A stretch of DNA of 64,000 nucleotides from an uncultured Bacilli bacterium. Lineage in GTDB: Bacteria; Bacillota_I; Bacilli_A; RF39; UBA660. The DNA lies in NCBI GenBank assembly GCA_934086935.1, contig CAKOIQ010000002.1, forward strand, positions 4,736 through 68,735. Direction: 5' to 3'. Shown here in pieces: positions 31,018 through 52,911 of the stretch. Below the pieces are notes generated by a model that was not told where the DNA came from, did no database searches, and saw only the letters and a program-made list of their open reading frames with translations. Position 1 is the stretch's first letter; every line of letters starts with the position of its first letter. The translations under genes and the position numbers were made by a program.

Positions 31018-33969
31018 TTAAGATTTAACAACAAATGTTAGACCAGATGGTGTTCCACTACTTGCAGCATTAAAATTATCTGCATCTGTTTGGGTACGTG
31101 CATATCCGGTTGTTGCTTTACTTCCAGAAAACATCTCTGACATGTCTTCTACTAAAGAAGTATTAAATGAACTTAAATCCAATGTTGTTGCGGCACTTTC
31201 ATAAAACATATATGACATATATATAACATTGCTTGTATCAAAACTACTTAAATCTAATGTTGTTGCTTTACTTCCATTAAACATCTCTGACATGTCTTCT
31301 ACTAAAGAAGTATTAAATGAACTTAAATCTAATGTTGTTGCTTTACTTCCAGAAAACATAGATGACATATCATTAACATTACTTGTATCAAAACTACTTA
31401 AATCTAATGAGGTTGCGGCACTAGAATTAAACATTCGTGTCATACTAGTTACTTTTGATGTATTAAATTGATTAAGTCCTTTGATTTCGGTTGCTGCATT
31501 ATAATCAAACATAGAACCCATATTTGTTACTTTTGAGGTATCAAAATTGCTTAAATCTAAACTTGTTGCGACACTATAAGAAAACATGTCTGACATATCA
31601 GCAACATTCGAAGTATTAAATTGATTAAGTCCTTTGATTTCTGTTGCGGCACTGTCAAAAAACATCCAGGACATATCGGTTACTTTTGAGGTATTGAAAT
31701 TACTTAAATCCAATGAGGTTGCTTTACTTCCAGTAAACATATGTGACATATCGGTTACTTTTGTGGTTTTAAGATTAGATAAATCTATGCTTTCTAATTT
31801 GGTATAATATCCAAACATGTATGATGCATTAGATCCAACTATTACTCCATTATCTTGACCAATGTAAAGTTCATATAAGCTATCATTATCTTCATCTAAG
31901 GTATATGCCATAATTGCTCCGTTGTGTTTTGCACCGGCATCCCAGGAAGCTATCGCATTACTTGGTACAATGTTTGTATTTTTAATAACAATCTTTTCTA
32001 CTTGATTTTTGGTTATTGGTCCATTAAATGCTTTTGATGTTGCTGCTTTTGCAGTATCTTGTGCAATTAATGTATCGTTTGCAATTATTATATATGGATT
32101 GCTGACTGTGCCATCTCCACCACTTATTATAGTGTCTGATTTTAAAGCAATAACTGGACGATATGCTACATTGTTGCTTGTTGAAATTGTTGGAGTAACA
32201 TAATTATTCTTTATTCCATAAACAGATGGAGTAGAATTTTTATAATCAGCTGGGGTTATTGTATAATATGCATAATTATTTGCTGCTGACGAATATAAAT
32301 AACTTTTGTTGTTACCAATATATGCTTTATCATAGCCAATTGATAATCCAGCAAATAAGGCTTCATCTGCTGTTAACATTCCAACCTTTGATTTTAGACC
32401 TGTTGTAACAGATGCGTTTCTATATGAAGGACTCGTTTCACTATAATTTCCAATTTGTGGAGTTGACGATACGACTAAACCTCCAGATGGACAACTATAT
32501 GTTGGGTTTGGTATGTTGTTGTTATAAGATTTATTAAATTTTTGAAGTCCTGAAAATGCAATGCTATTGACATTGTCATATAATGTTGGATTATAGTTTT
32601 TATTTCTGATTGAAGTATCATTACAATAAATTATATCTTCTAAATAGTCATTATAGTTTGATAGATTGTTTGTAGCCCAGGTGGACAAGACAGTTTCTGC
32701 ATTGCTTCCCTTAAAATCTGAAGTTGCAGCGGTTCCATAAGTTCCTGTTTGAACTGTACCGGAATTTTTTATAAATGGATTACTAGATGAACAACTTGAT
32801 CCATCCCCATTTTCTAATACTAATTTTATAGCTCCATTACCCATTACTCTGACAATTCTCCAACATTTGCCGGCAAATTGAACATAATTATTTTGAACAT
32901 TGCCTCTAAAATAGTATGAGACACTGTATTCGTCTGGTTCTGATGACATGATTGCTTCATCACTACTTAGTTCTGATGATTTAGTTTGATATGAATAATA
33001 CATATAATATGTTGAATTATCAGAACCTACTTGAACATCATTTACGTAGAATACGTCACCGTTTTCATTATCAAAGGATATGTATTTTCCTTTTAGTGTT
33101 CCTTGTAAATTAGTATTTGATAAAACTAATGACGTAGGATTGGATAAAGAATATGTTCCATTAACATTTTTAGTTCTGGAAGCACTGTAATAAATAGTTT
33201 TTCCAGCAATTGATGATAAATCTGCTTTATGCACAGTTCCATCATTTATAGTTGTTGATGCGACTACTGCTGATGGTTCTAATCCTGGAGTGGATACAGG
33301 AGTTTGTACCTTATTTGCTTTATTATTTCTTAGGGCGTAAAGTAACGTTCCATCTTCTGAACTATACCAATTGCTAGGTGCGGCAAAGTTGGCCTTACTC
33401 CATGTTACGATTGTACCAACTACAGCAAGGTTTGCTTCAAATTTTTGGTTAATCATTGTATTATCTGAAACTGCTATAATAATATTCATGCGATAGGTTT
33501 GAGTTCCGTTTGCTGGTAAAAAATCTGTATATACTCCAGACATTTGTAAACCGGTATCGGTAGTTATTGTAGGTGCAGATGATAATAATAGTGCGCGTTC
33601 TAAATTATATTCATTAACTCTGTTAACAGCTATTTGAATTTTATTCGTTGCTATGGTTGTCGTACTTTTATTTTGAACGCCAATATCAATTTTTATATCA
33701 CGTGAGCATTTATTTGTTACTTTAAAAGTATAATAGTCACCATCATTCCATAAGCTATTAAAATTAGTGCTACGATCTACACTTTTACTTATGACATGGT
33801 TATCACTTTCAAATTTAATTGTTGCACAATCTGTTGTTTTTAATAAATGTTCTTTGCTATCAGTTCCTGTAACAGAAAAATAGGCATATGAAGTACCTGC
33901 TAATAGAATAATGGCAAATAAAATGCTGCATAATAAAATAAGTTTATTTTTTAAGATAGCTTTTTCCAT
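31018..33969 (-). CDS. Large secreted DUF285-repeat surface protein with TasA/SipW-cognate-like signal peptide
   Basis: 983 aa. The N-terminus MEKAILKNKLILLCSILFAIILLAGTSYAYFSVTGTD resembles the TasA/camelysin-type signal. A long Ser/Thr/Asn-rich beta-rich region follows, then 11 or more tandem DUF285-type repeats (LDLSNFNTSKVTDMSWMF...). It ends with the conserved tail TGYARTQTDADNFNAASSGTPSGLTFVVKS. A hairpin terminator lies at about 30990-31015. Confidence 0.75.
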   Translation of the reverse strand: MEKAILKNKLILLCSILFAIILLAGTSYAYFSVTGTDSKEHLLKTTDCATIKFESDNHVISKSVDRSTNFNSLWNDGDYYTFKVTNKCSRDIKIDIGVQNKSTTTIATNKIQIAVNRVNEYNLERALLLSSAPTITTDTGLQMSGVYTDFLPANGTQTYRMNIIIAVSDNTMINQKFEANLAVVGTIVTWSKANFAAPSNWYSSEDGTLLYALRNNKANKVQTPVSTPGLEPSAVVASTTINDGTVHKADLSSIAGKTIYYSASRTKNVNGTYSLSNPTSLVLSNTNLQGTLKGKYISFDNENGDVFYVNDVQVGSDNSTYYMYYSYQTKSSELSSDEAIMSSEPDEYSVSYYFRGNVQNNYVQFAGKCWRIVRVMGNGAIKLVLENGDGSSCSSSNPFIKNSGTVQTGTYGTAATSDFKGSNAETVLSTWATNNLSNYNDYLEDIIYCNDTSIRNKNYNPTLYDNVNSIAFSGLQKFNKSYNNNIPNPTYSCPSGGLVVSSTPQIGNYSETSPSYRNASVTTGLKSKVGMLTADEALFAGLSIGYDKAYIGNNKSYLYSSAANNYAYYTITPADYKNSTPSVYGIKNNYVTPTISTSNNVAYRPVIALKSDTIISGGDGTVSNPYIIIANDTLIAQDTAKAATSKAFNGPITKNQVEKIVIKNTNIVPSNAIASWDAGAKHNGAIMAYTLDEDNDSLYELYIGQDNGVIVGSNASYMFGYYTKLESIDLSNLKTTKVTDMSHMFTGSKATSLDLSNFNTSKVTDMSWMFFDSAATEIKGLNQFNTSNVADMSDMFSYSVATSLDLSNFDTSKVTNMGSMFDYNAATEIKGLNQFNTSKVTSMTRMFNSSAATSLDLSSFDTSNVNDMSSMFSGSKATTLDLSSFNTSLVEDMSEMFNGSKATTLDLSSFDTSNVIYMSYMFYESAATTLDLSSFNTSLVEDMSEMFSGSKATTGYARTQTDADNFNAASSGTPSGLTFVVKS
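31100..31833 (-). repeat. Intragenic tandem DNA repeats encoding DUF285 units (about 141-nt / 47-aa double-unit period)
   Basis: For example, gacatgtcttctactaaagaagtattaaatgaacttaaat recurs at 31140 and 31281 (141-nt offset), and further degenerate copies extend through 31830. Confidence 0.7.
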
Positions 33970-39512: not shown

Positions 39513-40556
39513 CTACTTTTCTATATAACCACTAGTTTTCTTAGTATACATTTCATCAGAAATTTTTTGATATTTTTTTCCATCATAATCATCAGTAAAT
39601 CCATTATATGCTTTGTATATTTCACCAGTTTCAGTGTTATAAACTCTTTCATACCCTAAGGTTGCATCACTTTGTTTTTGACTCATAATGTCATAGGTGG
39701 CACTTCTTTTATTCCAAGAATCCATGATGCCATCAGAAATTTGATTACAGATACTACGAACACTTTGGAAGTTTTTCATAACTGCATCTTGAGCACTATT
39801 AAATGAAGAAATAAAAGCATCAGTAAATTCTAATGACGAAGTAACTTCATTTAAAGTATCTTCCCAATCTATTAATTCATCTTTAGGTGTAGTATAGAAT
39901 ATTGCATCGTAAACATTTAAAAAATAATTATCAATTTTTTTACCTGAAATTATATTTTCATAAACGTAATATGAACCAGCATCATAAACATAAGCAGTAA
40001 ATAATCCTTCAGCTTCTTTGCCACTTTCATCTTTAAATGTTGCTCTTAAGATGTCGCCACCAAGTAAACCAGTTCCTAGATTATCAATAACTGTGAAATC
40101 TGTTAATGTAGGAAATGTAAAAGATGCAGTATTATTTAAATGACCTAACTCATTAAAGATTTTATAGAAACCTTCTGTTGTTTTAGGAGAAATTATAGAA
40201 TTTTTAGCAAATATACTATCTGGATAATATTTTTTGTACCAGTTTTTGGCATCTTCGGATTTATTATATCCTTCGGTTTTTAAATTAAAGAAAAATTGAT
40301 ATGAAGGATTTTGAGGATCATACATTTTAATTGTATAATGAATATAATCTCCAATCGTATTAACTATCCATCCTTTAGGTTTTTTAATACTAAAATAAGT
40401 ACTTTTATAGTCTTCAAGAACTACTTTACTTACTTCACTTTCTCTGATTTTGACATTATCCTTAGATAGATTCTGAGTTAAGATTATAACTAACGCTAAT
40501 ATAACAATAACTCCAACTATTATTAAAGTACTTTTTTTATCTTTTAATTTATCCAC
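39513..40556 (-). CDS. Membrane-anchored extracytoplasmic hypothetical protein (347 aa)
   Basis: N-terminal TM, 6 nt upstream of the previous gene (operon). No motifs recognised. Confidence 0.35.
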   Translation of the reverse strand: MDKLKDKKSTLIIVGVIVILALVIILTQNLSKDNVKIRESEVSKVVLEDYKSTYFSIKKPKGWIVNTIGDYIHYTIKMYDPQNPSYQFFFNLKTEGYNKSEDAKNWYKKYYPDSIFAKNSIISPKTTEGFYKIFNELGHLNNTASFTFPTLTDFTVIDNLGTGLLGGDILRATFKDESGKEAEGLFTAYVYDAGSYYVYENIISGKKIDNYFLNVYDAIFYTTPKDELIDWEDTLNEVTSSLEFTDAFISSFNSAQDAVMKNFQSVRSICNQISDGIMDSWNKRSATYDIMSQKQSDATLGYERVYNTETGEIYKAYNGFTDDYDGKKYQKISDEMYTKKTSGYIEK

Positions 40557-40660
40557 TATAAATCGCCTACCTTAATAATATTATATTTTAATTGGAAGAA
40601 TTAAACAATATTTTTATTAACAATTTACAAAAAAACTATCAATAATGATAGTTCTTAGAT

Positions 40661-40771
40661 TTATTTCATGACAACTTTATATAGAGCAGTAGCAAATCCT
40701 ATTCCAATTAAAATAGTTAGAAAGGCTGCTAATATTGCTAGTTTTGTTCTGGTTTTATTACTTATTTTCAT
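40661..40771 (-). CDS. Possible 36-aa hydrophobic micro-protein (MKISNKTRTKLAILAAFLTILIGIGFATALYKVVMK)
   Basis: Not in the ORF track (<60 aa). It has an AAGGAA RBS 7 nt upstream of the ATG, a single TM helix, and overlaps the proS stop by 14 nt. Confidence 0.25.
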   Translation of the reverse strand: MKISNKTRTKLAILAAFLTILIGIGFATALYKVVMK

Positions 40772-42452
40772 TTAGGTATTCCTTAATATAAGTAACTACT
40801 TCATCTAATTCGATGTCAATACTTTCTGTTTCTTTTCTTAGTTTAAACTCGACCTTTTTTTCTGATAGTTTTTTACCTAAAGTGATTCTAATTGGAATAC
40901 CAAGTAAATCTAAATCATTAAATTTTACACCTGGTCTTTCATCTCTATCATCTAATAAAGTATCTATTCCAGCTTTATTTAACTCTTCATATAGTTTATT
41001 AGCTACTTCCATACATGTTTCATCTTTGGTATTTAAAGCGGCTAAACAAACTTTAAATGGTGCGATACTTAGTGGGAAAATTATTCCTTTTTCATCGTTA
41101 TTTTGTTCAATAACAGCAGCAAGAATTCTTCCAGGACCCATTCCATAGCATCCCATAACAACTGGATGTGAGGTATTATTTTCATCTAAATATGTTAAAC
41201 CTAGTTTTTCTGAATATTTTGTTCCTAATTTAAAGGTATTACCTATTTCAATTCCTTTTTTAAAATATAGTTTCCCACCGCAATTTGGACAAGTATCATT
41301 TTCTTTAACATTTACAATGTCTGCACATAAATCATAATTAAAATCTTTTATATTAGCATTAATATAATGATATCCTTCTTTATTGGCACCTACAACGAAG
41401 TTAGTCATGGTTTTAACTTCTTCATCGATAATAATTTTAGCATTAGTTAAATTAATTGGGCCAGTATAACCGGGAACAGCATTAGATTTAGAAATTAATT
41501 CATCGGATGCAAATAATACTTCTTTACATCCTAATAACTTACATACTTTAGTTTCGTTTAATTCACGATCTCCTCTGATAAAGAAGACAACTAATTCATT
41601 ATCAATATTCATAAGTAAGGCTTTAACACTTTTTGTTACAGCGATATTTAGATAATTACATACTTCTTCAATAGTTTTAGCATGAGGAGTTTCTACTAAT
41701 TGTAATTCTTTTAACTCCTCTTTTGTTTCGGTAATTTTATGAGTAGCAATTTCCATATTTGATGAATATGAGCAATTATCACATAAAACTAATACATCTT
41801 CACCAATATCTGTAACGGCTTGAAATTCTTCTGATAAACTTCCACCCATTACTCCTGTATCGGCTTTAACGATAGCATAATTAACTCCAATACGATCAAA
41901 TATTTTTTTATAAGCATCATACATTTTTTGATATGATTTATCTAATCCTTCATCATCTTTGTCAAAGGAATAAGCATCTTTCATAAAGAATTCTCTTACT
42001 CTAATTAAACCAAAACGAGGTCTTGCTTCATCACGATATTTAGGAGCGTCTTGATAAATTGTAAATGGTAAATCTTTATAACTTCTTACCATAGATTTAG
42101 CAGCAATGGTAAATAATTCTTCATGAGTAGGACCTAAAACATATGGTTTATCATAACGATCTTTTAAATGAAACATTGAACTACCCATAGCTGCATTTCT
42201 TCCACAGGGTTCATAAACTTCTTCTGGAATTAATGATGGCATTAAAAGTTCAGTAGCTCCAGTTTTATCCATTTCTTCTTTAATTATTTTTTTAATATTA
42301 TCTAATACTTTAAGACCTAATGGTAAATACATATAAATACCACTTGATACTTTTTTAATCATACCTGATCTAACTAATAGATTACCACTTGTTGAATCTT
42401 CATCTTTAGCGTTTTCTCTTAAAGTATAAAAGTAACTATTTTTAAGTTTCAT
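40758..42452 (-). CDS. proS: Prolyl-tRNA synthetase (bacterial type with editing domain)
   Basis: 564 aa with class II aaRS motifs and the ProRS N-terminus MKLKNSYFYTLRENAKDEDSTSGNLLVRSGMIKK. Confidence 0.9.
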   Translation of the reverse strand: MKLKNSYFYTLRENAKDEDSTSGNLLVRSGMIKKVSSGIYMYLPLGLKVLDNIKKIIKEEMDKTGATELLMPSLIPEEVYEPCGRNAAMGSSMFHLKDRYDKPYVLGPTHEELFTIAAKSMVRSYKDLPFTIYQDAPKYRDEARPRFGLIRVREFFMKDAYSFDKDDEGLDKSYQKMYDAYKKIFDRIGVNYAIVKADTGVMGGSLSEEFQAVTDIGEDVLVLCDNCSYSSNMEIATHKITETKEELKELQLVETPHAKTIEEVCNYLNIAVTKSVKALLMNIDNELVVFFIRGDRELNETKVCKLLGCKEVLFASDELISKSNAVPGYTGPINLTNAKIIIDEEVKTMTNFVVGANKEGYHYINANIKDFNYDLCADIVNVKENDTCPNCGGKLYFKKGIEIGNTFKLGTKYSEKLGLTYLDENNTSHPVVMGCYGMGPGRILAAVIEQNNDEKGIIFPLSIAPFKVCLAALNTKDETCMEVANKLYEELNKAGIDTLLDDRDERPGVKFNDLDLLGIPIRITLGKKLSEKKVEFKLRKETESIDIELDEVVTYIKEYLNENK

Positions 42453-42524
42453 AATAACACTCCTCTTAAACTCTTTTAATTATATCAATATCTATTTAAT
42501 TCTTCAAGATATAAGAAAAGCTTA

Positions 42525-43307
42525 CTATAAATGTAAGCTCTTTCCTTTATATGTTTTAGCTTTATTAATAAATCCTCTTAATCTTGGTAAGATAACAACT
42601 TCATATTGCATTTGGTATAAACTATTTGATGGTACAATTTGAGGTTCTTCTAAATCATAGCCATGTAATGCATAAATAACTTCTTTTTCATCATCAGTTA
42701 AATGGGAAATTCCTTCCAAGATTTCTTTTTTGCTATATTCGCTTAATGTGTTATAGATTGATTCGATTTTAGTTTCTTTGTCTGCATGTGGTGAAAATAA
42801 TTTATTGGCTTTATCTTCTTCAATAGTTGTTTCAATATAGTTTGTCATATTAAATAATGCAGTTCTAATAACTCTTTCAGGTGTATCTAATAAAGTAGAT
42901 ATTTCTTCAATACTATAACTTTTACCATAATATAACATAAAATAATTTTTATTTTGAGTGCCAAAATATGTTAATATATCAAAAATTCTTTTAGCAATTT
43001 GATTTTTTATAAATTCTGGTTCGTCTTTATATAATGAACCAAATTTAATAGTAAAACGTGAATAAACATTTACAACAACAGCTTTATAGATAAATTCAAT
43101 TTCTTCCATAGCAGTTGCAACATTTACAATCTCATCAAATTTACATTCTAAGTTATGTTCTACAGCAGCGATGGCAAATAATGTTTTTCCATCTAATGTT
43201 CTTAAAATGCCATTTTTAATTTTTTCACCTTTTTCGGCATCTAAATAAACCACACTAATTACTTTATTATATACTTTTGATTCAGGTTTCTTAATTGTAT
43301 TTCCCAT
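42525..43307 (-). CDS. Hypothetical protein with degenerate sigma-70 region-4-like HTH and a C-terminal r4-helix-like motif (LTDDEKEVIYALHGYDLEEP)
   Basis: 260 aa. The middle segment FMLYYGKSYSIEEISTLLDTPERVIRTALFNMTNYI resembles the sigma r4 HTH. The C-terminal motif is shared with the proteins at 43313, 49220 and 51207. Confidence 0.45.
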   Translation of the reverse strand: MGNTIKKPESKVYNKVISVVYLDAEKGEKIKNGILRTLDGKTLFAIAAVEHNLECKFDEIVNVATAMEEIEFIYKAVVVNVYSRFTIKFGSLYKDEPEFIKNQIAKRIFDILTYFGTQNKNYFMLYYGKSYSIEEISTLLDTPERVIRTALFNMTNYIETTIEEDKANKLFSPHADKETKIESIYNTLSEYSKKEILEGISHLTDDEKEVIYALHGYDLEEPQIVPSNSLYQMQYEVVILPRLRGFINKAKTYKGKSLHL

Positions 43308-43312
43308 AATAA

Positions 43313-44071
43313 TTATTTCTCGATTCTTTCTATTTTTTTAGTTTTAATGGTTGTTAAATCATTTTTAGCTAAAATTGCAGATAATTTAGGTTCAATTATT
43401 AATTCATATGTCATACCTGTTAATGATTTATTAGCATCTGATGTAAAGATATCACCATCATATGAACTGTATATAATTTCTCTATCTTCTCTAGATAATA
43501 AACCCATAGCATTTAGTATTGCTGAAGGTGAATAAGTTTTTCCTAAACCTTCTTTAAAACTAATATGTTCATATTTTTTACTGTTATTATAATCTCTTTC
43601 TAATTCTAATTCGCCTAAACGGTATTTAATAAAGACAATTATATCATTTATATTTGATGATAAAGTTGGAATGTCTGTTTGGAATATTTTAAGTAAATCT
43701 TCTAGTGATACATCAGTTAAATATAATGTAATTAATCTAATATCTTCAAGTGGTAATGAATTTATAATAATTTTTAAATCTTTAAGTGCTTGTGATTGAA
43801 CACGACATGATTTCCCTTTAAAATACTCTGGAAAAGTACTGTATAAAATAGCAACACTTTTTTCATCTGTTAAAATTGTAACTAAATCTAAGAAATCATT
43901 TAAAGCTTTTTTTAATAGTTTTTCGATTTCTTCACTTGAATTAGCATTATGAATAGCGACATCTAAAGCAAATCTTTCTTCAGATGGTAAAATGCTTTTA
44001 ATTTGTTCAAATTCTTCAGAAGTTAATGAACCTGAGAATTCTAATAATTTTTCTTTATTTAATTTTTCCAT
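43313..44071 (-). CDS. Hypothetical protein, paralogous architecture to 42525-43307 (r4-like segment plus C-terminal LSREDREIIYSSYDGDIF motif)
   Basis: 252 aa with LITLYLTDVSLEDLLKIFQTDIPTL (r4-like) and the C-terminal motif. It has its own promoter at 44103-44130. Confidence 0.45.
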   Translation of the reverse strand: MEKLNKEKLLEFSGSLTSEEFEQIKSILPSEERFALDVAIHNANSSEEIEKLLKKALNDFLDLVTILTDEKSVAILYSTFPEYFKGKSCRVQSQALKDLKIIINSLPLEDIRLITLYLTDVSLEDLLKIFQTDIPTLSSNINDIIVFIKYRLGELELERDYNNSKKYEHISFKEGLGKTYSPSAILNAMGLLSREDREIIYSSYDGDIFTSDANKSLTGMTYELIIEPKLSAILAKNDLTTIKTKKIERIEK

Positions 44072-44102
44072 TTTATTTCTCCCCTTTTTGAAGTGCTATG
44101 TT

Positions 44103-44130
44103 ATTATACTCATTTCTGAGATTTTGTCAA
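44103..44130 (-). promoter_or_regulatory. Sigma-A-type promoter (-35 TTGACA, 16-17-bp spacer, -10 TATAAT) for the 43313/42525 gene pair
   Basis: Minus-strand reading is cTTGACAaaatctcagaaatgagTATAATaac, about 25 nt upstream of RBS AAAGGGGAG and the ATG. Confidence 0.5.
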
Positions 44131-44133
44131 GTT

Positions 44134-46215
44134 TTACTGAATTTTCTTAGAGAAACTGCCTTGGTTAGGAGACATTATTGTTTTAGAGAATGCTTCTATT
44201 TTATTTTTTAATTCTTCAAAACGTGATTCCATGTCTGGATGTTTGGCAATTTCATGAAGATTTATTTCAAGTTCTTGTCCAGATTTATTCCTAATAATTA
44301 ATTTATCAATAATTTTAGCATAAATAATTGAAGCATAATCTTCTAATACTTCTTGATATTCGGTTCCAATAAAATCTTGATAATGTAATATTCTATCTAA
44401 TAAAATCGATTCTTCAAAATCATTTATAACTAATTTTTTTATTTTTAATCGACATAAACCAAATTCAAGTTCTTCCACTGAAGCGGGGATAATAAGTGTT
44501 TCTATAAAAACTTCAAGACGATTGCGCCATGAATATTTTTGAGCAACATCTATTTTTATTTTTTTAATACCAGATTGAAATTCTAATTTTCTTAAATCTA
44601 AATCAGTAGGATCGATTCCGGTTGAAACTAGTCTAATTTCAAAGTTTTTTAGAGATGGAGGCATTAAAACATTTTTATTTAAAAATCGAAGAACATCTAT
44701 AAATACTTCGGAAATTGGTTTTAATTTTGAGAATTGTGAACCTATTTCAATTTTGGGACTTGTTTTGACCCAATCGTAGTATGTATAAACATAATTTTGA
44801 GATATAGAAGTAAAACCATCTGGGAATTCATAAACATTGGAATTATTTTTAGAAGTGAACATTTCATAGATATTACTTAAATTACTTAGTTTTTTTACAC
44901 CTAACCCATTGCTTTTTAGAAAATCCATAAGAGTACTATAGGGTTGTATATCATTTAATATTCTTATATATGTAGATAATGGTATTGTTTCTGATAAGAC
45001 GGCATCAGGTAGAAAACAATTTGCCAAATTAGCGTTACAAAATTTAGTTGAAAAGAATTCATTTAATCCATCTTTGTTATCTAATGATAATAATAATTTT
45101 CTTTTAATTTTATCAGATAAGATATGGATATAATCAAACTTACTATTTTCATCTCTTAAATAGTCACTAATAGCATTTATTAATCGAGTACATTTTAGTT
45201 CTTGTGAATTTGTATAGTACTCTCCAAGATAAGTTTTAATAAAAGGGCTCTCACCTTTTATTAAATTGTTTAATTTTTCCATAATAATTTTTTCATATAC
45301 TTCTTGTTCATTTTGATAAAGATTATTTTTGTTAAAATAATTATCTTGAACTGATTGACTATCTATAACCTCATCATCCCTACTTAATAATACCTTAAGT
45401 TTTACATTATATAATTCTTGTATTTCTCTTTTAGAAATTAAATTTCTTCCAAATAAATAAAATAACATAAATCTATTTTCTAAATTTATTATATTTGAGT
45501 ATTGTTTAGATAAGTCTTTACTTGCCTTTAAATCTTGAAGTTGTTTTCTAATTTCATTAATCTCATCTTTGTGATGATAAACATATTTTTCTAAATACAT
45601 TTCAGATATTATCATTTCAGTTGTATATCCTGAAGTTGAAGACTTAGAATAAACTTTTCTTAAGTATTTTTTTCTATCTAAATATGCTTTTTGTTCTTCA
45701 TTAGCTAAAGTTAGAACATGTTCATTTGATTTAAAATTTTTTATTTCTCTTTCTAGTGCACCTAATTGATTTTTTAAAGTTATTAAGGAAAGTTGGATTG
45801 CATTCATGGCATTAATAATGGCATTTTTCTTTTTTAAGGATAAGAATGGTTTTTCTTTTTTGATTTCATCTAAAGCTACTAATCTTATAATTAATGTTTT
45901 GTAAATGCTTCTTATTTCTTCTAAGTATAGTTTTAACTTAGTGACAACATAATCAAATTGATTAGATATTTCTAAGTTATTTAATAGTAATTCTGTATAC
46001 ATGAATACTTCCTCGTGCATATTTCCATTGTCTAACTCTTTGCTTAATCTAATATTATCTTTAAGAAGTTCTTCGTATTCAGATTTAGTTTTATTAAGAA
46101 ATCTAATATCACTAATATGCTCTCTTTGAGGAATGGGAAAAAGATTGGATATATCTACTAATCCAATTTGATTATTCTTTTTAAAAATAGTTTTAAAGTG
46201 TTTAAATATTTCCAT
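44134..46215 (-). CDS. Large cytoplasmic protein of unknown function (693 aa)
   Basis: Long clean ORF with no TM, no Walker motifs and no recognisable catalytic signatures. It is predicted helical with coiled-coil stretches. Confidence 0.45.
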   Translation of the reverse strand: MEIFKHFKTIFKKNNQIGLVDISNLFPIPQREHISDIRFLNKTKSEYEELLKDNIRLSKELDNGNMHEEVFMYTELLLNNLEISNQFDYVVTKLKLYLEEIRSIYKTLIIRLVALDEIKKEKPFLSLKKKNAIINAMNAIQLSLITLKNQLGALEREIKNFKSNEHVLTLANEEQKAYLDRKKYLRKVYSKSSTSGYTTEMIISEMYLEKYVYHHKDEINEIRKQLQDLKASKDLSKQYSNIINLENRFMLFYLFGRNLISKREIQELYNVKLKVLLSRDDEVIDSQSVQDNYFNKNNLYQNEQEVYEKIIMEKLNNLIKGESPFIKTYLGEYYTNSQELKCTRLINAISDYLRDENSKFDYIHILSDKIKRKLLLSLDNKDGLNEFFSTKFCNANLANCFLPDAVLSETIPLSTYIRILNDIQPYSTLMDFLKSNGLGVKKLSNLSNIYEMFTSKNNSNVYEFPDGFTSISQNYVYTYYDWVKTSPKIEIGSQFSKLKPISEVFIDVLRFLNKNVLMPPSLKNFEIRLVSTGIDPTDLDLRKLEFQSGIKKIKIDVAQKYSWRNRLEVFIETLIIPASVEELEFGLCRLKIKKLVINDFEESILLDRILHYQDFIGTEYQEVLEDYASIIYAKIIDKLIIRNKSGQELEINLHEIAKHPDMESRFEELKNKIEAFSKTIMSPNQGSFSKKIQ

Positions 46216-46298
46216 TTTTAATCCTCTGTTTGTAGTTAGTTATAATATCATTCGATATAATTTTTATCAATATAAAAACTTCATTAAAAATGAAGCTT

Positions 46299-46625
46299 TT
46301 AATATTGATATTTATTTGCAATTTTAATTACACCATAGTTTTTACATTCCAGATAATAGATTTTATTATCTAATTCATAAGGATTAAGATATGAATTATT
46401 ATTTTCATAATCAATGTTTTCATATTTATATTTTGTTATACCATTTAAAATAAAACATAATCTTATTGATCCATTTCTTGTTAAATAAAAATAATATATT
46501 AAAATAATATTTACTAATAATAAGATAATATATAAATATTGTTTTTTCTTAAAAATTAAATAGATAAATAATACAGATATAAATAATAATAAAAATAAAA
46601 TAATTAATGGTTTAATCTTCTTCAT
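46299..46625 (-). CDS. Small membrane protein (108 aa), hypothetical
   Basis: Two N-terminal TM helices and a Tyr/Asn-rich tail with 2 Cys. Its start overlaps the stop of the upstream XRE gene by 14 nt. Confidence 0.35.
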   Translation of the reverse strand: MKKIKPLIILFLLLFISVLFIYLIFKKKQYLYIILLLVNIILIYYFYLTRNGSIRLCFILNGITKYKYENIDYENNNSYLNPYELDNKIYYLECKNYGVIKIANKYQY

Positions 46626-47778
46626 CTCCTAGTTGTTCATATTGTAGATAGCCATAGATTCCAGTAAATTCAGATTGATATAAGGTAATGAATTCTTTGG
46701 CTTTAGATTCAATGGTTTCATTAGTGATAACTTTAGTTTTACGACCATAAAGAATATTGTTTTTCATATCATAAACGTATGGATTAAGTAAATATCCTTC
46801 ATCATCTAATTCAGAAACAGATAAAAATCTAGAGTTAAGTCTTCCATAGAAGATAAAATTTGGTTTTTTATAACGATAAATATTGCCATTTTTAGTTAAA
46901 GTTACATACATTTTAGATTTATCTTTAAAGATTTTATGAAATGTGATTGAATCATCTTGGGTGTAACCTTTTTTAATTAAATGATTAATGGTTTTATCAT
47001 TGGACTCAGTCGTTGTAGTCTTTTTTGTTTGATTATCTAAAGAAATAGGATTTTCTTTTGGATAATAAAATTTATTATTTTGCATAATTAATTCATTATT
47101 AATTTTTATAGTTTCTTTTACTTCTTTTTGATCTTTTAGATAAGTTATTTCTAAAGTCCATTTATCTTTATTATTAATAATTTCTTTAGTAAAAATTTCA
47201 TTATATCCATAATCTTCGATAATAGTATGACTTTCTAAACTGGTACCTGATATTATTCTTTTGTCATTATATTTAAGTTCTAAAATTTTAATATCATCTT
47301 TTTTGATTTGGGAATTTTTAATATTGATATGCCCAAATGAATAAATATATTTAATATTTGAAGTTAATAAAAATCCATCGACATAATCAAAATTTTGACC
47401 ATTTGCAGATAAACTATATCCTTTAACTTTATTATAATTACTTAAATAAAACAGAGAAAGAAAGCTTACTATAAATAAGATTATTAATGAAATAATAGCT
47501 ATCATACTTTTTTGTTTTTGTTTCTTTTCACGATATTTAATATATTCAATATAACCATCTTCATTATTTTTTTCTTCACCATTGAGAAGTTCAATAATGT
47601 TAATTTTTAATATTTCACACAATTCTGACATAATTGAAACATTAGGAAGATTTAAACCTCTTTCCCATTTACTAACAGCATTTTTACTGATGTTTAGTTT
47701 TTCAGCCACGTCTTCTTGAGTTAGTTTTTGTTCTTTTCTTTTGGTACTTATAAATTTACCAATCTTTTCTTGTTTCAT
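46612..47778 (-). CDS. XRE-family HTH membrane-anchored regulator (HTH - TM - extracellular domain; RodZ-like topology)
   Basis: The N-terminus IGKFISTKRKEQKLTQEDVAEKLNISKNAVSKWERGLNLPNVSIMSELCEIL is a Cro/C1-type HTH. A single TM (MIAIISLIILFIVSFLSLFYL) follows, then about 280 aa of extracytoplasmic domain. Confidence 0.6.
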   Translation of the reverse strand: MKQEKIGKFISTKRKEQKLTQEDVAEKLNISKNAVSKWERGLNLPNVSIMSELCEILKINIIELLNGEEKNNEDGYIEYIKYREKKQKQKSMIAIISLIILFIVSFLSLFYLSNYNKVKGYSLSANGQNFDYVDGFLLTSNIKYIYSFGHINIKNSQIKKDDIKILELKYNDKRIISGTSLESHTIIEDYGYNEIFTKEIINNKDKWTLEITYLKDQKEVKETIKINNELIMQNNKFYYPKENPISLDNQTKKTTTTESNDKTINHLIKKGYTQDDSITFHKIFKDKSKMYVTLTKNGNIYRYKKPNFIFYGRLNSRFLSVSELDDEGYLLNPYVYDMKNNILYGRKTKVITNETIESKAKEFITLYQSEFTGIYGYLQYEQLGDEED

Positions 47779-47942
47779 TTTTCATCCTCTTTTCTGATTA
47801 AAGTTTAGCAAGATTAATTATTATTTTAAACACACTTATGGTTTACTTCAAGAAAAAAACATTTTTAAAGTATTTCATTTTAATTTATTATTAGCTAATT
47901 CTTACTAAATCACACCAAAAAAGACGTTATTAAAACGTCTAA

Positions 47943-48308
47943 TTATGATTTTACTACAAATGTTAGACCAGATGATTTATTACTACTTGCATTAAATTTA
48001 TCTGCATCTGTTTGTGTACGTGCATATCCGGTTGTTGCACTAATATTTTGAAACATATTTGACATATTTGTTACCATAATTGAATATGATGCCGCAGCAT
48101 TTCCAGTATTTTTTACTGTAAATGTTTTGGAATCACTCCATCCTGGATAGATAGTTGCTCCTATAATTTGCTTTGAACCATCAGTATATGTTACCTCTAG
48201 ATTACCTGCTCTACTTATGATACTACTACCTTCATCTCCATTATCAATTACTGCTGTATAAAATGCATAACTTATACCAATAAAAGCAATTAATAAAAAA
48301 ACTATCAA
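47943..48308 (-). CDS. Short secreted TasA-like protein; internally deleted paralog of the DUF285 surface protein (signal + TasA-like start + one partial DUF285 unit + conserved tail)
   Basis: MIVFLLIAFIGISYAFYTAVIDNGDEGSSIISRAGNLEVTYTDGS...ATIYPGWSDSKTFTVKNTGNAAASYSIMVTNMSNMFQNISATTGYARTQTDADKFNASSNKSSGLTFVVKS. Its 3' ~100 nt are near-identical to 31018-31115. It lies 3 nt downstream of murB, and a terminator hairpin sits at 47916-47942. Confidence 0.6.
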   Translation of the reverse strand: MIVFLLIAFIGISYAFYTAVIDNGDEGSSIISRAGNLEVTYTDGSKQIIGATIYPGWSDSKTFTVKNTGNAAASYSIMVTNMSNMFQNISATTGYARTQTDADKFNASSNKSSGLTFVVKS

Positions 48309-48310
48309 TG

Positions 48311-49174
48311 TTAATTAATAATTTTTTGTTCAAGAATTAAATCTATATTATATTTATTTTTTACTTCTTTTGTAATGAAATTAATTAAAGACGTAATGTC
48401 TTTACTAGTGGCATTTCCGGTATTTACGATGAAATTGGCATGTTTAGTTGAAACCATTGCTCCACCTATTTGATAACCTTTTAAACCTAAATCTTCAATT
48501 AATTTACCAGCAAATAAACCTTCAGGATTTCTAAAAACTGAACCAGCATTTGGATATTCTAGAGGTTGAGTTGATAATCTTTTGTCTAAACGTTCTTTTA
48601 CTAGTGTTAATGATTCCTCTTTAGAACCAGGTTTTAAAGTTAAAGTAGCTTTTAAAATAATTAAGTCTCTAGTTTGTAAGTTGGAAGTTCGATATGAAAA
48701 AGATAAATCATTTTTCTTAATTATCTTTACTTTATTATTTTCCAAAACTTCTAATTCTGTTACATAGTTAGATATTTCATCTTTATAAGCACCGGCATTT
48801 CCGACAATTGAAGCACCTAAAGTTCCAGGAATACCACTAGCCCACTCTAAACCTGTTAGATTATGATTTATAGATTCGTTAGCTAAGTTAATAAGTAGAT
48901 TAGAAGCTCCAGATATAATAGTATTTTTATTAATAGTTAATTCTTTAAAATCTAATTTGATAACTATTCCTTTATAACGATCTGGTAAAATTATATTAGA
49001 ACCATTACCTAAAATAAAATATTTTTTATTATTATCTTTTAAATATTTAATTAAGTTAGTTAATTTCACAACATTATCAACAATTATTAAATAGTCACAT
49101 ATAGAGTGAATTTTATAAGTATTATAAGCATATAAATCTTGTTTTTTAAATACTTTTCCATAGTTAGAATACAT
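48311..49174 (-). CDS. murB: UDP-N-acetylenolpyruvoylglucosamine reductase
   Basis: 287 aa with the FAD-binding domain (FILGNGSNIIL) and C-terminal NAGSVFRNPEG of MurB. Confidence 0.8.
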   Translation of the reverse strand: MYSNYGKVFKKQDLYAYNTYKIHSICDYLIIVDNVVKLTNLIKYLKDNNKKYFILGNGSNIILPDRYKGIVIKLDFKELTINKNTIISGASNLLINLANESINHNLTGLEWASGIPGTLGASIVGNAGAYKDEISNYVTELEVLENNKVKIIKKNDLSFSYRTSNLQTRDLIILKATLTLKPGSKEESLTLVKERLDKRLSTQPLEYPNAGSVFRNPEGLFAGKLIEDLGLKGYQIGGAMVSTKHANFIVNTGNATSKDITSLINFITKEVKNKYNIDLILEQKIIN

Positions 49175-49219
49175 AGCATCACCTAAGTTAATTATATTCT
49201 ATTTAAAGAAAAAAAGCAT

Positions 49220-51217
49220 CTATTTAATGCTTTTTGCTTGTCTTTGTTTAATTTTAGGAATTACTTTCTTAAATTCTGCTATAAATGGAACTATTAATTC
49301 TTTATTATCAAATATTTTAACTAATTCTTCTTGAGTATAATTTGATGAAGTAAATCTTTCATTACCATTTAAGACTTTTAGAGCTATACTAAATAATAAT
49401 TCGGGTCCAATTTTAGGATTTAATTTAGAAAAAGAAGGAAGGCCGACTAAATCAATTGGATCAATATCTTTTTTGGTATATACTTTTTCTTCTGGTTTTT
49501 GGAAAGATAAAGATTGAACTCTTATATATGGAATTAAATACATTTGTAAATATTGTTTTTCACATATTGATAATAAACCTAGATGATGTTCACATAGATT
49601 GGTTCCATATGCTTTAATTAATAATTCTTTATCTTCACTTGGTAAACATGTTTCAAATACTTTAAGGATGTTTTCTCTAGGTATATTTGGTAATAAAGTA
49701 AATAAATTTTGTTTTGAATCTGATGAAGTTTGTGAGTCAGTTCCTTTATCTTTTCTTAAAATTAAAGGCAGTGATTTAAAAATTAAATTTGATAGACGAT
49801 GTTGATCTTGATTATTTATTGGGATTTCTTTACGACGATATAAATCTTCATCATAATATCTAGTAATAAGATTTTGATTAGTTTTATCTAAAGTACTGAT
49901 TGCATATTTTAGATCAATTGGTGAATAACCTGGGAAGAATTTAGTTAATCTTACTCGGCAAATTTCTTTATGAGTATTATTTAATTTAACTTCATCTAAA
50001 ATGCCACTATTAGCATTATTTAATGATTTTATAACAGGGTCATTTCTTAATACTTTAAGAGCTTTAGATTCTTCTTGTCTAATTCTTTCACGAGTTACAT
50101 TAAACATTTTACCTATTTCATCTAAAGTTTTCTTTTCTTCACCTAAAAGACCAAAACGATAAATAATTATCTTGATTTGTCGTTCTGTAAGTTTAGAACC
50201 ATATATTGCTTTTACAATAGCGTCACTAAAATCTTTTTTAATAAAATCTTCTTCAATTTTAGTATCTTGATCAGGAATAAAATCTTCTAAGGATGCGTCT
50301 GGTTCTTCTAGTCTTATTGGAGAATTAATACTAATTTCTGGACGAATAATAGAAAAGGCATCTTCAATTTTTGATACTGAATAATCAGTTAATTCAGATA
50401 ATTCTTCAATGGTTGGTTCTTTACCAGTTTCATCATGAATACGTTTAGCAGTAGCGCTTACTTTGTATTTCATAGATTTAATATAATCTGGATATCTTAT
50501 TGTTGTTGATGAATAATTAATGAATCTTTTTATAGATTGTTTTATCCACCAAGTAGCATATGTTGAAAATCTATAACCTTTACTTACATCAAATTTTTCA
50601 ATGGCTCTAATTAAACCAAATACTCCTTCTTGAGTTAAATCATTCATAGTAATGGTTGAAGATATTAAACGATATTTTTTAGCAATTGAGATTACTAATC
50701 TTAAATTATGTTTAATTAAAATGTCTGTTGATTCTTGATCTCCATTTTGGGATTTAATAATAAGACTTCTAGTTTCCGCTGGAGTTAATAATCGATATTT
50801 TCTTGTTTCATTTAAAAACATAGATTGTGATGGTCCAACATAGTCTTCATTAATAGTAATCTTATTATCATCTAATTCTAATTTGTTAATATCAATATCT
50901 TTTTTATCACAGAAAACTTCAATTATTTCACAGGTAATTTCATCTGGTACTAAAGATTCCAGACTACTTTCTTGAATAAATCCTAAATATTTATTTAAAA
51001 TAGATTTGATTAAATCATTAACTACTTCATTAGATAATAATAATTCATCAATTTTTTCATAAGTTACATTATCTTCGTTATTATCACATAATTTAAAGAA
51101 ATAGTTAGAAATACGTAGTAATGATTTTATATTTTCATTTGGTTTATCACTAATTCTAATTTTTTCTTCTATATATGCTTTTATTAATTGTTTTTTCTCT
51201 TCCATATTATTTTTCAT
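49220..51217 (-). CDS. Sigma-70 family RNA polymerase sigma factor (group 1/2-like regions 1.2-4) with ~265-aa C-terminal extension
   Basis: 665 aa. Region 1.2 is [16 protein letters not shown], region 2 is [18 protein letters not shown]...[37 protein letters not shown], region 3 is present, and region 4 is [49 protein letters not shown] ending near residue 400. The C-terminal extension holds two further r4-helix-like motifs. A terminator hairpin lies at 49188-49217. Confidence 0.8.
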
Positions 51218-52826
51218 CCTTTCTATCTACTGGCTTAAGTACCATTTCTTTTGGTTTTTTAGATAACGAATTAAATTCATTTATGGTTTGAGTAACGATA
51301 TAATTGATTTCCTCATCAGTTAAATTAAATTGAGAAAATAGTTTTTTATAAATATAATCACTTGTTTCAGTAACACCTAGTTTAATAGCAGTAATTATTT
51401 GTTCATCGATGGTTTGATTTGTAAGAGGTAAACTAGTTTGTCTTTGTTTTCTTAATTGTCTTCCTATTTTAGGATAAATAATATTTTTAATTTCAATTAA
51501 AGATTCACTTGGTAATGTAACTAGTAAAGGATTTTCTAAATCATAATTATGAAAAGCATATACTAGTTCTTTTTCACGTTCTGATAATAATGATAAAGCA
51601 TAATTTATTTCATCTTTAGTAAAGAATTCAAATGTTGTATAGATTGATTGAGGAAGAGTTACTCGGCGAATTTTAGTTAATTCTTCTAAGGATATTTTAC
51701 CTTCATTGTATTTTATTATATTTCTTTTTAGGCGTTTAATTACGGTTGTTATTCGTTGCTCTTCTTCATCTGAAAGAACATGATATTCTTTTAATGAAGA
51801 CCCATATTTTTTAAAGATAAGTTGTTTATCTAACTCTGAATAACTTTCAATTATACGTTTTAATAAATCTTGAGATATTTCTGGTAGTCTTTCATTTAAG
51901 GTTTTATTTTTTAATTTTCTTTCGAAGTGACCTCTTGTAATATTTGATCGCATTAAATGAAGAATACAAACTATTCTATCTTCAGATTGAGAATCAATCT
52001 TATGGGCTTCAGTTAAATCGGCTCCAAATTTTCTAGTTATTAGATTTTTATCTTTTTCTGTTAAAGATGCTATGTAAGTAATTATTTGTTCTGGAGTATA
52101 TTCGGGCATTCTTTCAAAAATGTTTTTTATTTTAGAACCAGATACTGCTAATTTTGGTGTACTTGATTTAGTTTGATATTTAGGAGTTGGGCTTTTTTCT
52201 TTTTCTGTTATAATTGGTAATTTGATGGGATTAATTGGATCTGTAATGGTACTTTGTAATTTATTTAAACGATTAATGATTAAGCTTTTATAACTGGTTA
52301 CTAAAGTTAATATGTGATTAATATTAATATTTAATCTTCTAGCAATAATATCTTCAGGAAGATTTTTTCCATAAAAACCAAAGCGTAATTTTAAGATTTC
52401 TTTTGTTCTTGAATCAGCAGATAATTCAAATTGATCAATGATATATCTTTTTATTTGTGGGTAGACTCTTTCGTCAATACTTAAAGTAAATTCATTTATG
52501 ACATTATTGGCAAAAGTTTCTGATTTACTACCTAATGCGGGTTGAGGATTTTTGGTTAAATAATTTTTTATTTTGTTATATATACAAGAAACAGCTGTCT
52601 CATAAAAGTTTTGGTTTTGGTAAGAAGTTATTGCTTCATTTAAACCGGTAAGGCCTAAACTGAATAGTAATTCATAAGAATATGGTGTTTCTTTGAATTT
52701 TCCTTCTATTATCTTTTCTATTAATTCATAGTTATGTTTAATCAAGATATCTTTTGCTTGCTTATCACCGTTTTTAAAACGTTGTAATAGTTCCTGTGTT
52801 TCACTCACACTTAAAATCTTTGCCAT
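51207..52826 (-). CDS. Degenerate sigma-70 paralog ('pseudo-sigma'): region-2-like N-terminus lacking the aromatic melting residues, one r4-like HTH and three r4-helix-like repeats
   Basis: The likely start is MAKILSV at 52826 (RBS GGAGGGG); the ORF-track start at 52877 is upstream of the promoter. The N-terminus aligns with its neighbour's r1.2/r2 (NGD..DILIKHN; [15 protein letters not shown] vs [14 protein letters not shown]; [17 protein letters not shown] vs [17 protein letters not shown]). It also carries [26 protein letters not shown], then [18 protein letters not shown] and VYAFHNYDL repeats. It overlaps the sigma gene by 11 nt. Confidence 0.6.
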
Positions 52827-52848
52827 AAACCCCTCCGTTTTGGTGCCT

Positions 52849-52877
52849 ATAATACACCAAAATAGCGAAAATTGCAA
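52849..52877 (-). promoter_or_regulatory. Sigma-A-type promoter (-35 TTGCAA, 17-bp spacer, -10 TATTAT) for the pseudo-sigma/sigma operon
   Basis: Minus-strand reading is TTGCAAttttcgctattttggtgTATTATagg, about 22 nt upstream of the RBS. Confidence 0.5.
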
Positions 52878-52911
52878 GAAAAAACTACTAATCTAATGAG
52901 TTAGTAGTTTT
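52875..52911 (-). terminator. Rho-independent terminator of valS (11-bp stem aaaactactaa/ttagtagtttt enclosing the stop codon, then UUUUUUCUU)
   Basis: Perfect inverted repeat immediately followed by a T-run on the minus strand, overlapping the -35 of the next promoter. Confidence 0.65.

Follow-up and report, generated by a model that had tools for sequence, protein, structure and literature searches.

Sigma factors are among the best-studied proteins of bacteria, and extra domains behind their region 4 (sigma4) are known mainly as single regulatory extensions of extracytoplasmic function (ECF) sigmas. Among smaller proteins, SigO and RsoA supply complementary sigma parts, and YlxM/UPF0122 is a ~110-aa protein encoded next to ffh. 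Here we describe a locus on a 64,000 nt stretch of DNA from an uncultured Bacilli bacterium (contig CAKOIQ010000002.1; 'the window' hereafter means this whole stretch), where two small adjacent minus-strand genes next to proS, which we call B and A, encode a ~70-aa repeat module that also occurs in two sigma proteins encoded about 6-9 kb away, a 665-aa SigA/RpoD-like sigma and a divergent ('pseudo') sigma. We conclude with considerable confidence that A and B are sigma-70-derived, each combining a sigma4-like unit that retains its helix-turn-helix (HTH) with one canonical repeat, without recognisable sigma2 or sigma3 and without the terminal tail found behind the longer arrays; they are in effect free-standing mini-arrays of the repeat-bearing sigmas. 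ECF-type sigmas with C-terminal extensions are comparable in having an extra domain fused behind sigma4, and differ in that the extension here is a tandem sigma4-derived array with a second sigma4-like HTH, carried on SigA-like as well as short cores, and in A and B is present without a sigma core.

The seven clear modules of the window, one each in A and B, two in the 665-aa sigma and three in the divergent sigma, score 19.8-61 bits with an independent repeat hidden Markov model (HMM) rebuilt from 280 repeats with all window relatives excluded, against 8.6 bits for the best of 800 shuffled controls; both A and B are therefore matched by a model made only from members unrelated to the window. 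When an HMM of the seven window instances themselves was run against the 345 open reading frames (ORFs) of the window and three related loci, no other ORF gave a convincing match, the lowest full-sequence E being about 0.5. These scores bear out a proposal of the first-pass annotation of this DNA, that a C-terminal motif is common to A, B and both sigmas. Its further statement that the motif recurs two to four times in the sigma proteins, nine instances in all, holds for the two and three repeats given above and shrinks to seven clear instances overall, and the motif written as a strict regular expression matches A and B only. BLASTP also aligns residues 87-251 of A with residues 322-479 of the divergent sigma, that is, with its repeats 2 and 3 (E 3e-11), which sets the HTH unit of A opposite a repeat.

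The larger of the two sigma proteins matches the NCBIfam RpoD model PRK09210 (E 7e-64, model positions 26-363 of 370), and a housekeeping-like sigma may carry the repeat extension in this genome; no sigma genes other than these two were seen in the 64-kb window. The ORF of the divergent sigma was listed from a TTG at 52877, giving 556 aa, whereas the ATG at 52826 (MAKILSV...) gives 539 aa. Since its ortholog P0016 is 539 aa long, the ATG is probably the start and the first 17 listed residues are probably untranslated.

That the motif is private to four proteins, as had been thought, did not survive the database search that the first-pass annotation had itself proposed. A 74-column alignment of the seven window instances and three ortholog instances, searched against 1.84 billion representative proteins, recovers 613 proteins at a cut-off of E<=1e-3, of which 223 reach E<=1e-10 and 56 reach E<=1e-30. 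Each stands for a protein cluster, so that the motif occurs in no fewer than 613 clusters, in most cases as an array at the C-terminus of a sigma-70-family protein; inspection covered the best 150 of the 613 matches. An apparent near-orphan status, with four clusters for A, two for B and one for the module profile in a word-indexed homolog search, was overturned by this exhaustive HMMER search. The best 148 proteins hold 795 repeat matches (median 5 and maximum 17 per protein) at a period of 78 aa. Where an N-terminal non-repeat region is present (54 members), it is sigma-like in most cases, with Sigma70_r2 found in 40/54, Sigma70_r3 in 24/54, Sigma70_r1.2 in 10/54 and Sigma70_r4 in 47/54. The typical architecture runs from a sigma core through a variable number of degenerate sigma4 repeats to a terminal, complete sigma4-like HTH, and some members have an ECF-like core followed by repeats (e.g. 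P0020). The tandem array of at least two repeats between a sigma-70 core and a tail is not seen in A and B, which have one clear repeat, no core and no tail.

Those members that bear a name are called 'sigma-70 family RNA polymerase sigma factor' or 'hypothetical protein', and come from metagenome-assembled genomes (MAGs) labelled 'Bacilli bacterium' or 'bacterium'. The arrays, of 2-17 copies each, occur in low-GC genomes of uncultured bacteria of this kind. No model for the repeat was found in Pfam, NCBIfam, PADLOC or PHROG, and our literature searches found no description of the repeat or of the array architecture. PADLOC returns nothing for A and only a chance-level Avs2 match for B (E 0.004), PHROG returns generic sigma-factor families only for A, and PADLOC, PHROG and Rfam together gave nothing specific. 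Within the set of family members P0008-P0155, sigma-70-family proteins reach ~1,600-1,860 aa, carrying as many as 17 tandem repeats and, at the end, an acidic sigma4-like HTH. Repeats of the family (e.g. P0010 923-947, P0015 42-63) score 27-34.5 bits with NCBIfam NF045770, the MG284/MPN403 C-terminal domain (cut-off 37.3), a hint that a related sigma4-like unit is present in some uncharacterised proteins of Mycoplasma.

The origin of the module (consensus IKTIYEYFSDYSKEEIDEAISKLSEEEKELLYLRYGEDLDNPNKLSLNEEQRIKFYNIIIPKIKRLLE) is indicated by alignments to three kinds of sigma profile. Fragments consisting of repeats only match Pfam Sigma70_r4 (PF04545) and Sigma70_r4_2 (PF08281) within the first ~22-29 profile positions, and summing over repeats brings whole-protein E-values down to about 1e-15; P0010, a full-length protein with an N-terminal non-repeat region as well, reaches 1e-28. 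The NCBIfam model RpoD_Cterm aligns one whole repeat to its positions 160-229 of 238, a span that covers region 4 completely, and hhalign (its E-values, here and below, are single-comparison values) maps a profile of 290 repeats onto sigma4 of the family's own sigma cores (probability 76%, E 2.3e-5). Because of these alignments we read the module as a degenerate sigma4 domain, collinear with sigma4 and with the first half kept: the region-4.1 helices and the last helix are retained, and the first HTH helix, unlike that of canonical region 4, is replaced by a proline-containing 'YG-DL-x-P' loop. This assignment of helices and loop agrees with the low-confidence secondary structure predicted by AlphaFold2 (AF2). 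The first-pass annotation had treated the motif and a region-4-like segment as two different things, a distinction that dissolves since the module itself maps onto sigma4. A further ~63-aa C-terminal domain (consensus KNLSKKEAIIISLKLGYIDNKYYSIEEIAKFLNISEEEVNEIIKKILLKYKENINKILDKIIK) is present in 100/108 tails after arrays and aligns with sigma4 as well (hhalign probability 97%, E 5.8e-11); the tail of the 665-aa sigma is not recruited by the tail-domain HMM.

The relationship of A to B, proposed earlier as paralogy, is confirmed by hhalign, which aligns them collinearly over 227 columns (probability 89%, E 2e-6); BLASTP finds only the C-terminal 59 aa shared (E 6e-6). By profile comparison they are old, very diverged paralogs. 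Their AF2 models, derived from shallow alignments of 5 and 3 sequences, share one helix layout: a number of helices at the N-terminus, then a unit of four helices (A 98-167, B 89-164), then a C-terminal part that combines short helices with a loop and one long helix. In A the predicted local distance difference test (pLDDT) is 85-97 over residues ~80-170, and Foldseek superimposes the four-helix unit on the sigma region 4 structures 2h27, 3hug and 3vfz with template modelling (TM) scores of 0.59-0.86, root-mean-square deviations of 1.4-2.2 A and probabilities of 0.94-0.99 (for sigmaE region 4, TM 0.75-0.83 and probability 0.99). Library matches of A point the same way at scores below the gathering thresholds: Pfam Sigma70_r4_2 at E 1.6e-4 and 21.7 bits (cut-off 25.7), Sigma70_r4 at 15.9 bits (cut-off 24.1), and NCBIfam PRK06930, 'positive control sigma-like factor', at E 2.4e-7 and 30.6 bits (cut-off 136); a PHROG sigma factor family is matched at E 7e-7. 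By hhalign, A aligns with the family's sigma4 (E 4.2e-5) and with its tail HTH (E 4.8e-5), and when whole sigma cores of the family are offered, only sigma4 is aligned.

For B the corresponding unit is modelled at medium confidence (pLDDT only 60-71), matches 2h27, sigmaE region 4, in Foldseek (TM 0.76-0.81, probability 0.6-0.8, 24-25% identity), and aligns with family sigma cores at E 3.3e-4 and probability 38%, with the confidence concentrated in sigma4. Its segment has no family-library match, and none in Pfam even at E<=1. Sequence-profile searches of the PDB gave nothing significant, the best weak hints being FliA sigma4 and YlxM. The mid-protein likeness to a region-4 HTH that had been noted in both proteins is thus upheld for A by libraries, AF2 and Foldseek, and less firmly for B by a medium-confidence model and profile alignments to A and to sigma cores; a four-helix sigma4 fold with HTH is predicted for A and probable for B. 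Like sigma-70 region 4, the mid-domain of A, and less surely that of B, is a four-helix fold with an 'L-x-x-E-x-x-hh-x-L-x-Y-G' start; unlike it, A stays below the Pfam thresholds, B has no match, both domains are acidic and neither has sigma2 or sigma3 in front. Neither Sigma70_r2 nor any other sigma2 motif was detected in A or B at E<=1 with Pfam or NCBIfam. Because the two proteins fall below the Pfam thresholds and lack sigma2, we do not file them as sigma factors, and place the domain in the sigma4 superfamily by fold and profile.

AF2 gives low confidence to the N-terminal parts of A and B, and the hints about them point in opposite directions, none of them significant. They may be a third degenerate sigma4-like unit, since module matches occur at 7-25 and 94-113 in B orthologs and the module of A aligns to the N-terminus of B (E 0.012), or a degenerate sigma2, as in the alignment of B with a short sigma core.

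A and B are real genes under purifying selection. Orthologs of A (P0001-P0004) and of B (P0005, P0006, P0149) lie on metagenomic contigs, P0149 representing a 200-member cluster labelled 'hypothetical protein [Bacilli bacterium]', and both genes are present in one GTDB representative, 'MAG: bacterium isolate SUG986'. Gene order is conserved: L001 and L002 read divergent sigma - sigma - murB - XRE - B - A - proS, L005 reads sigma - murB - B - A - proS, and L003 and L006 show the B - A - proS portion. The promoter (AAACTTGACAAAA...ATGAGTATAAT) is nearly base-for-base identical across the window and L001, L003, L005 and L006, with the same hexamers and spacing upstream of the B orthologs, while protein identity between the window's A and B and their orthologs in those four loci is no more than about 48-56%. 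Orthologs, gene order and promoter together identify A and B as real genes, and dN/dS ratios (nonsynonymous to synonymous substitution rates) among closer relatives, 0.09-0.11 for A and 0.21-0.30 for B, indicate purifying selection. Within A, identity to orthologs is 68-70% in the module, 61-63% in the N-terminus and 38-41% in the HTH; the module is the best-conserved part and the HTH the least conserved folded part.

A link of A and B to sigma biology is very likely, and that they are sigma-interacting or sigma-mimicking proteins is a reasonable inference. What they do is a matter of lower confidence: they may be protein-protein adaptors or modulators of repeat-bearing sigmas or of RNA polymerase (RNAP), a reading that we consider a serious possibility falling somewhat short of probable. 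In such a scheme A and B would not read promoters. Their shared module and sigma4-like surface would bind the same partner as the arrays of the sigmas, this partner being either those arrays or a surface of RNAP, for example the beta-flap tip normally held by sigma4, and the binding would adjust how active the repeat-bearing sigmas are. Expression of the two proteins, as a translationally coupled pair, would be constitutive, driven by a strong and conserved promoter of housekeeping type. Mean net charge is +3.7 for core sigma4 (53 domains of the same family) and -1.8 for the tail HTH, and that of the HTH units of A and B lies between -5 and 0. Taken as a proxy for the recognition helix, the net charge of the domain, -4 for A and -5 for B, compares with the +3.7 mean, and the recognition helix of both has few basic residues. 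Acidic sigma4-like domains that probably lack a basic recognition helix, together with a module that is the best-conserved part of A, favour a protein-protein role and make promoter recognition less likely. The concept of a protein that does not read promoters and uses sigma4-type surfaces recalls, as functional speculation, sigma-mimic and sigma4-binding regulators such as PhyR (with its sigma-like domain), Rsd and T4 AsiA, and PhyR is among the Foldseek matches for A; A and B have no receiver domain, and there is no sequence relationship.

The adaptor reading must be tempered by several points that weigh against it. Net charge predicts DNA binding only crudely, both AF2 models give the module fold low confidence (pLDDT 40-57 for A), and a contact of module with module, or of module with RNAP, is pure inference. 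A and B are carried by only three or four species-level lineages, and their link to the sigma genes is loose, with murB and variable genes intervening. Moreover, in NCBIfam and PHROG alignments the sigma4-like domain of A takes the place that it has in minimal sigma factors of ~170 aa, and the alignment of B with a complete short sigma core, though weak, is collinear (E 3.3e-4, probability 38%).

From these last two points it follows that A and B could be extremely divergent true sigma factors, of a minimal alternative kind with a degenerate sigma2-like N-terminus, sigma4 and one repeat, which would bind core RNAP and direct it to promoters of their own. Residues ~91-165 of A do align to C-terminal positions ~100-165 of the ~170-aa models (PRK06930/Xpf-like, TIGR02937, phrog_1190), residues 2-155 of B are collinear with the short sigma core, whole ECF sigmas and FliA are among the top Foldseek matches for both models, and ECF-like cores followed by repeats exist in the family, as in P0020. 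The failure to detect sigma2 in either protein, the restriction of the alignment between A and family sigma cores to sigma4, the low-confidence N-termini and the acidic sigma4-like domains with a poorly conserved recognition helix all tell against it, and we think it unlikely. We give no more credence to the idea that A and B are ordinary stand-alone HTH regulators that bind DNA in the manner of YlxM/UPF0122 or LuxR and use the module for dimerisation, perhaps as an A-B heterodimer. The confidently predicted sigma4 fold of A would suit such a role, as translationally coupled paralogs would suit a heterodimer, and the YlxM/UPF0122 family (PF04297; PDB 1xsv, 1s7o), together with Xpf-like PRK06930, comprises small sigma4-like-HTH proteins that A matches best, if weakly, in both sequence and fold (for YlxM/UPF0122, Pfam E 0.0068, 17.1 bits, cut-off 22.7; PDB 1xsv E 0.04). 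Yet A scores far below the cut-offs of these families, which lack the repeat module, B is unmatched, and the gene context is proS and murB rather than ffh, so that neither protein belongs to YlxM. The acidity of the HTH domains, with few basic recognition-helix residues, and the position of the HTH as the least conserved folded part of A speak against DNA binding, and the occurrence of the module almost only behind sigma cores elsewhere would be left unexplained.

Much less credible is a two-subunit split sigma, the analogy with SigO/RsoA of Bacillus subtilis that was drawn in the first-pass annotation. The genes are indeed two, small, adjacent, co-transcribed and sigma-related. A and B are, however, collinear paralogs with the same layout of sigma4-like part and module rather than complementary halves, and neither has a detectable sigma2-like part; the hhalign collinearity led us to reject this candidate. 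The least probable reading, which we give almost no weight, is that the motif reflects a K/E/I/L-rich compositional coincidence or that A and B are decaying gene remnants. The ~26% GC of the genome, its K/E/I/L/N-rich proteins and the handful of homologs in the word-indexed search had made this worth considering, and low-complexity composition had been named beforehand as the finding that would overturn the motif. The shuffled controls and the lack of a convincing match in any other window ORF rule out coincidence, as does the recovery by the module HMM of hundreds of multi-copy proteins, and gene decay is ruled out by dN/dS, with the conserved promoter and synteny also against it.

A bolder extension of the adaptor reading, which we rate as rather unlikely, is that arrays of up to 17 modules on housekeeping-like and alternative sigmas serve as docking rods for the beta-flap tip of further RNAPs, for each other or for upstream factors, with A and B as soluble competitors or adaptors that tune the docking; this would amount to a sigma-encoded transcription scaffold and an unrecognised layer of regulation in uncultured gut Bacilli. 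At the least, the repeat establishes a new domain family, with which hundreds of proteins now annotated as 'hypothetical protein' or under the generic label 'sigma-70 family' could be described more precisely. It amounts to an extension of up to 17 degenerate sigma4 copies and a second sigma4-like HTH, found even on a SigA-like, probably housekeeping sigma, in a clade where two- or three-unit versions also exist as separate proteins (A and B), encoded behind a strong conserved promoter, and this sigma4-derived architecture is undescribed in the literature we found. If it is true that the repeats bind RNAP or each other, transcription in these poorly known, uncultured gut Bacilli would be regulated or organised in a novel manner.

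The features of the locus are collected in Table 1. Window GC is ~26% and the encoded proteins are rich in K, E, I, L and N. On the minus strand the gene order is valS, divergent sigma, 665-aa sigma, murB, a 121-aa ORF, an XRE-type HTH gene, a 108-aa membrane ORF, a gene for a 693-aa protein, B, A and proS. The stop codon of B and the ATG of A are 5 nt apart. The promoter lies inside the 62-nt gap before B and is the sole perfect TTGACA-16-TATAAT match in 8 kb (40500-48500), and GGGGG or GGGGA stands at the position of the ribosome-binding site in four related loci likewise. This full consensus match, the tight packing and the conservation in four related loci support the earlier statement that B and A are co-transcribed from a textbook promoter. 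With a terminator-like hairpin over the A stop codon and, in the region 42453-42524, a promoter-like site of proS's own (TTGAAG-17-TATAAT with TG extension), B and A look like a separate two-gene unit. A T-box leader is expected for aminoacyl-tRNA synthetase genes in Bacillota; an Rfam scan of 40000-53500 found no element, T-box included, and none upstream of proS.

Table 1. Features of the B-A locus and of the repeat-bearing sigma genes (window coordinates)
Feature	Position	Strand	Evidence and remarks
proS	40758-42452	minus	adjoins A
Terminator-like hairpin and T-run	42516..42542	minus	spans A stop codon
Gene A, 260 aa	42525..43307	minus	ORF; N-terminal part 1-94, sigma4-like HTH 95-167, single repeat module 179-252
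A repeat module (residues 179-252)	42552..42773	minus	independent repeat HMM 61 bits
A sigma4-like HTH domain (residues 95-167)	42807..43025	minus	sub-threshold sigma matches, AF2/Foldseek, hhalign; net charge about -4
Gene B, 252 aa	43313..44071	minus	ORF; N-terminal helical part 1-88, sigma4-like HTH 89-164, single repeat module 168-241
B repeat module (residues 168-241)	43349..43570	minus	independent repeat HMM 19.8 bits; B orthologs 27.7-35.5 bits
B sigma4-like domain (residues 89-164; LPLEDIRLITLYL...IPTLSSNINDIIVFIKYRL)	43580..43807	minus	probable; Foldseek, hhalign; net charge about -5
Ribosome-binding site AAAGGGGAG (GGGGAG)	44079..44087	minus	7 nt before B ATG; read from sequence
Promoter of B-A unit	44130..44103	minus	TTGACA 44130-44125, 16-nt spacer, TATAAT 44108-44103; 12/12 consensus
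665-aa SigA/RpoD-like sigma	49220..51217	minus	Pfam r2, r3, r4 (r4 at residues 342-392); two repeats; 91-aa tail
665-aa sigma, repeat (residues 419-492)	49742-49963	minus	36.0 bits
665-aa sigma, repeat (residues 501-574)	49496-49717	minus	34.9 bits
Divergent ('pseudo') sigma	51207..52826	minus	NCBIfam SigK/SigE-type N-terminal matches; three repeats and terminal acidic sigma4-like HTH
Divergent sigma, repeat	51915-52136	minus	54.6 bits
Divergent sigma, repeat	51693-51914	minus	39.2 bits
Divergent sigma, repeat	51444-51665	minus	57.9 bits
Divergent sigma, terminal acidic sigma4-like HTH	51237-51419	minus	tail HMM 39.5 bits

The genes between murB and B are variable. The 388-aa XRE-type HTH protein (46612-47778, minus) has a predicted membrane segment and resembles PADLOC RmrA-type and HTH models (E 1e-11); its gene is found in L001 and L002 and is absent from L005, making it a variable element between murB and B. 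The 693-aa protein (44134-46215, minus) is an orphan with no match in Pfam, NCBIfam, PADLOC or PHROG. Its gene and the 108-aa membrane ORF (46299-46625, minus) sit between the XRE gene and B, are absent from the related syntenic loci (L001, L003 and L005 among them) and look like a lineage-specific insertion. The 121-aa ORF (47943-48308, minus) is a miniature paralog of a 983-aa repeat-rich surface-type protein (31018-33969, minus): its last 45 aa are 71% identical to the C-terminus of the latter (E 4e-15) and the hydrophobic N-termini are similar, and it may be a deletion derivative or short variant of that protein. On the other side of the unit, the genes after proS in the window differ from those in related genomes, where a 36-aa ORF and a HipA_C-domain gene form a toxin-antitoxin-like pair (L001 12665-13480, L003 4455-5270, L005 6243-7058).

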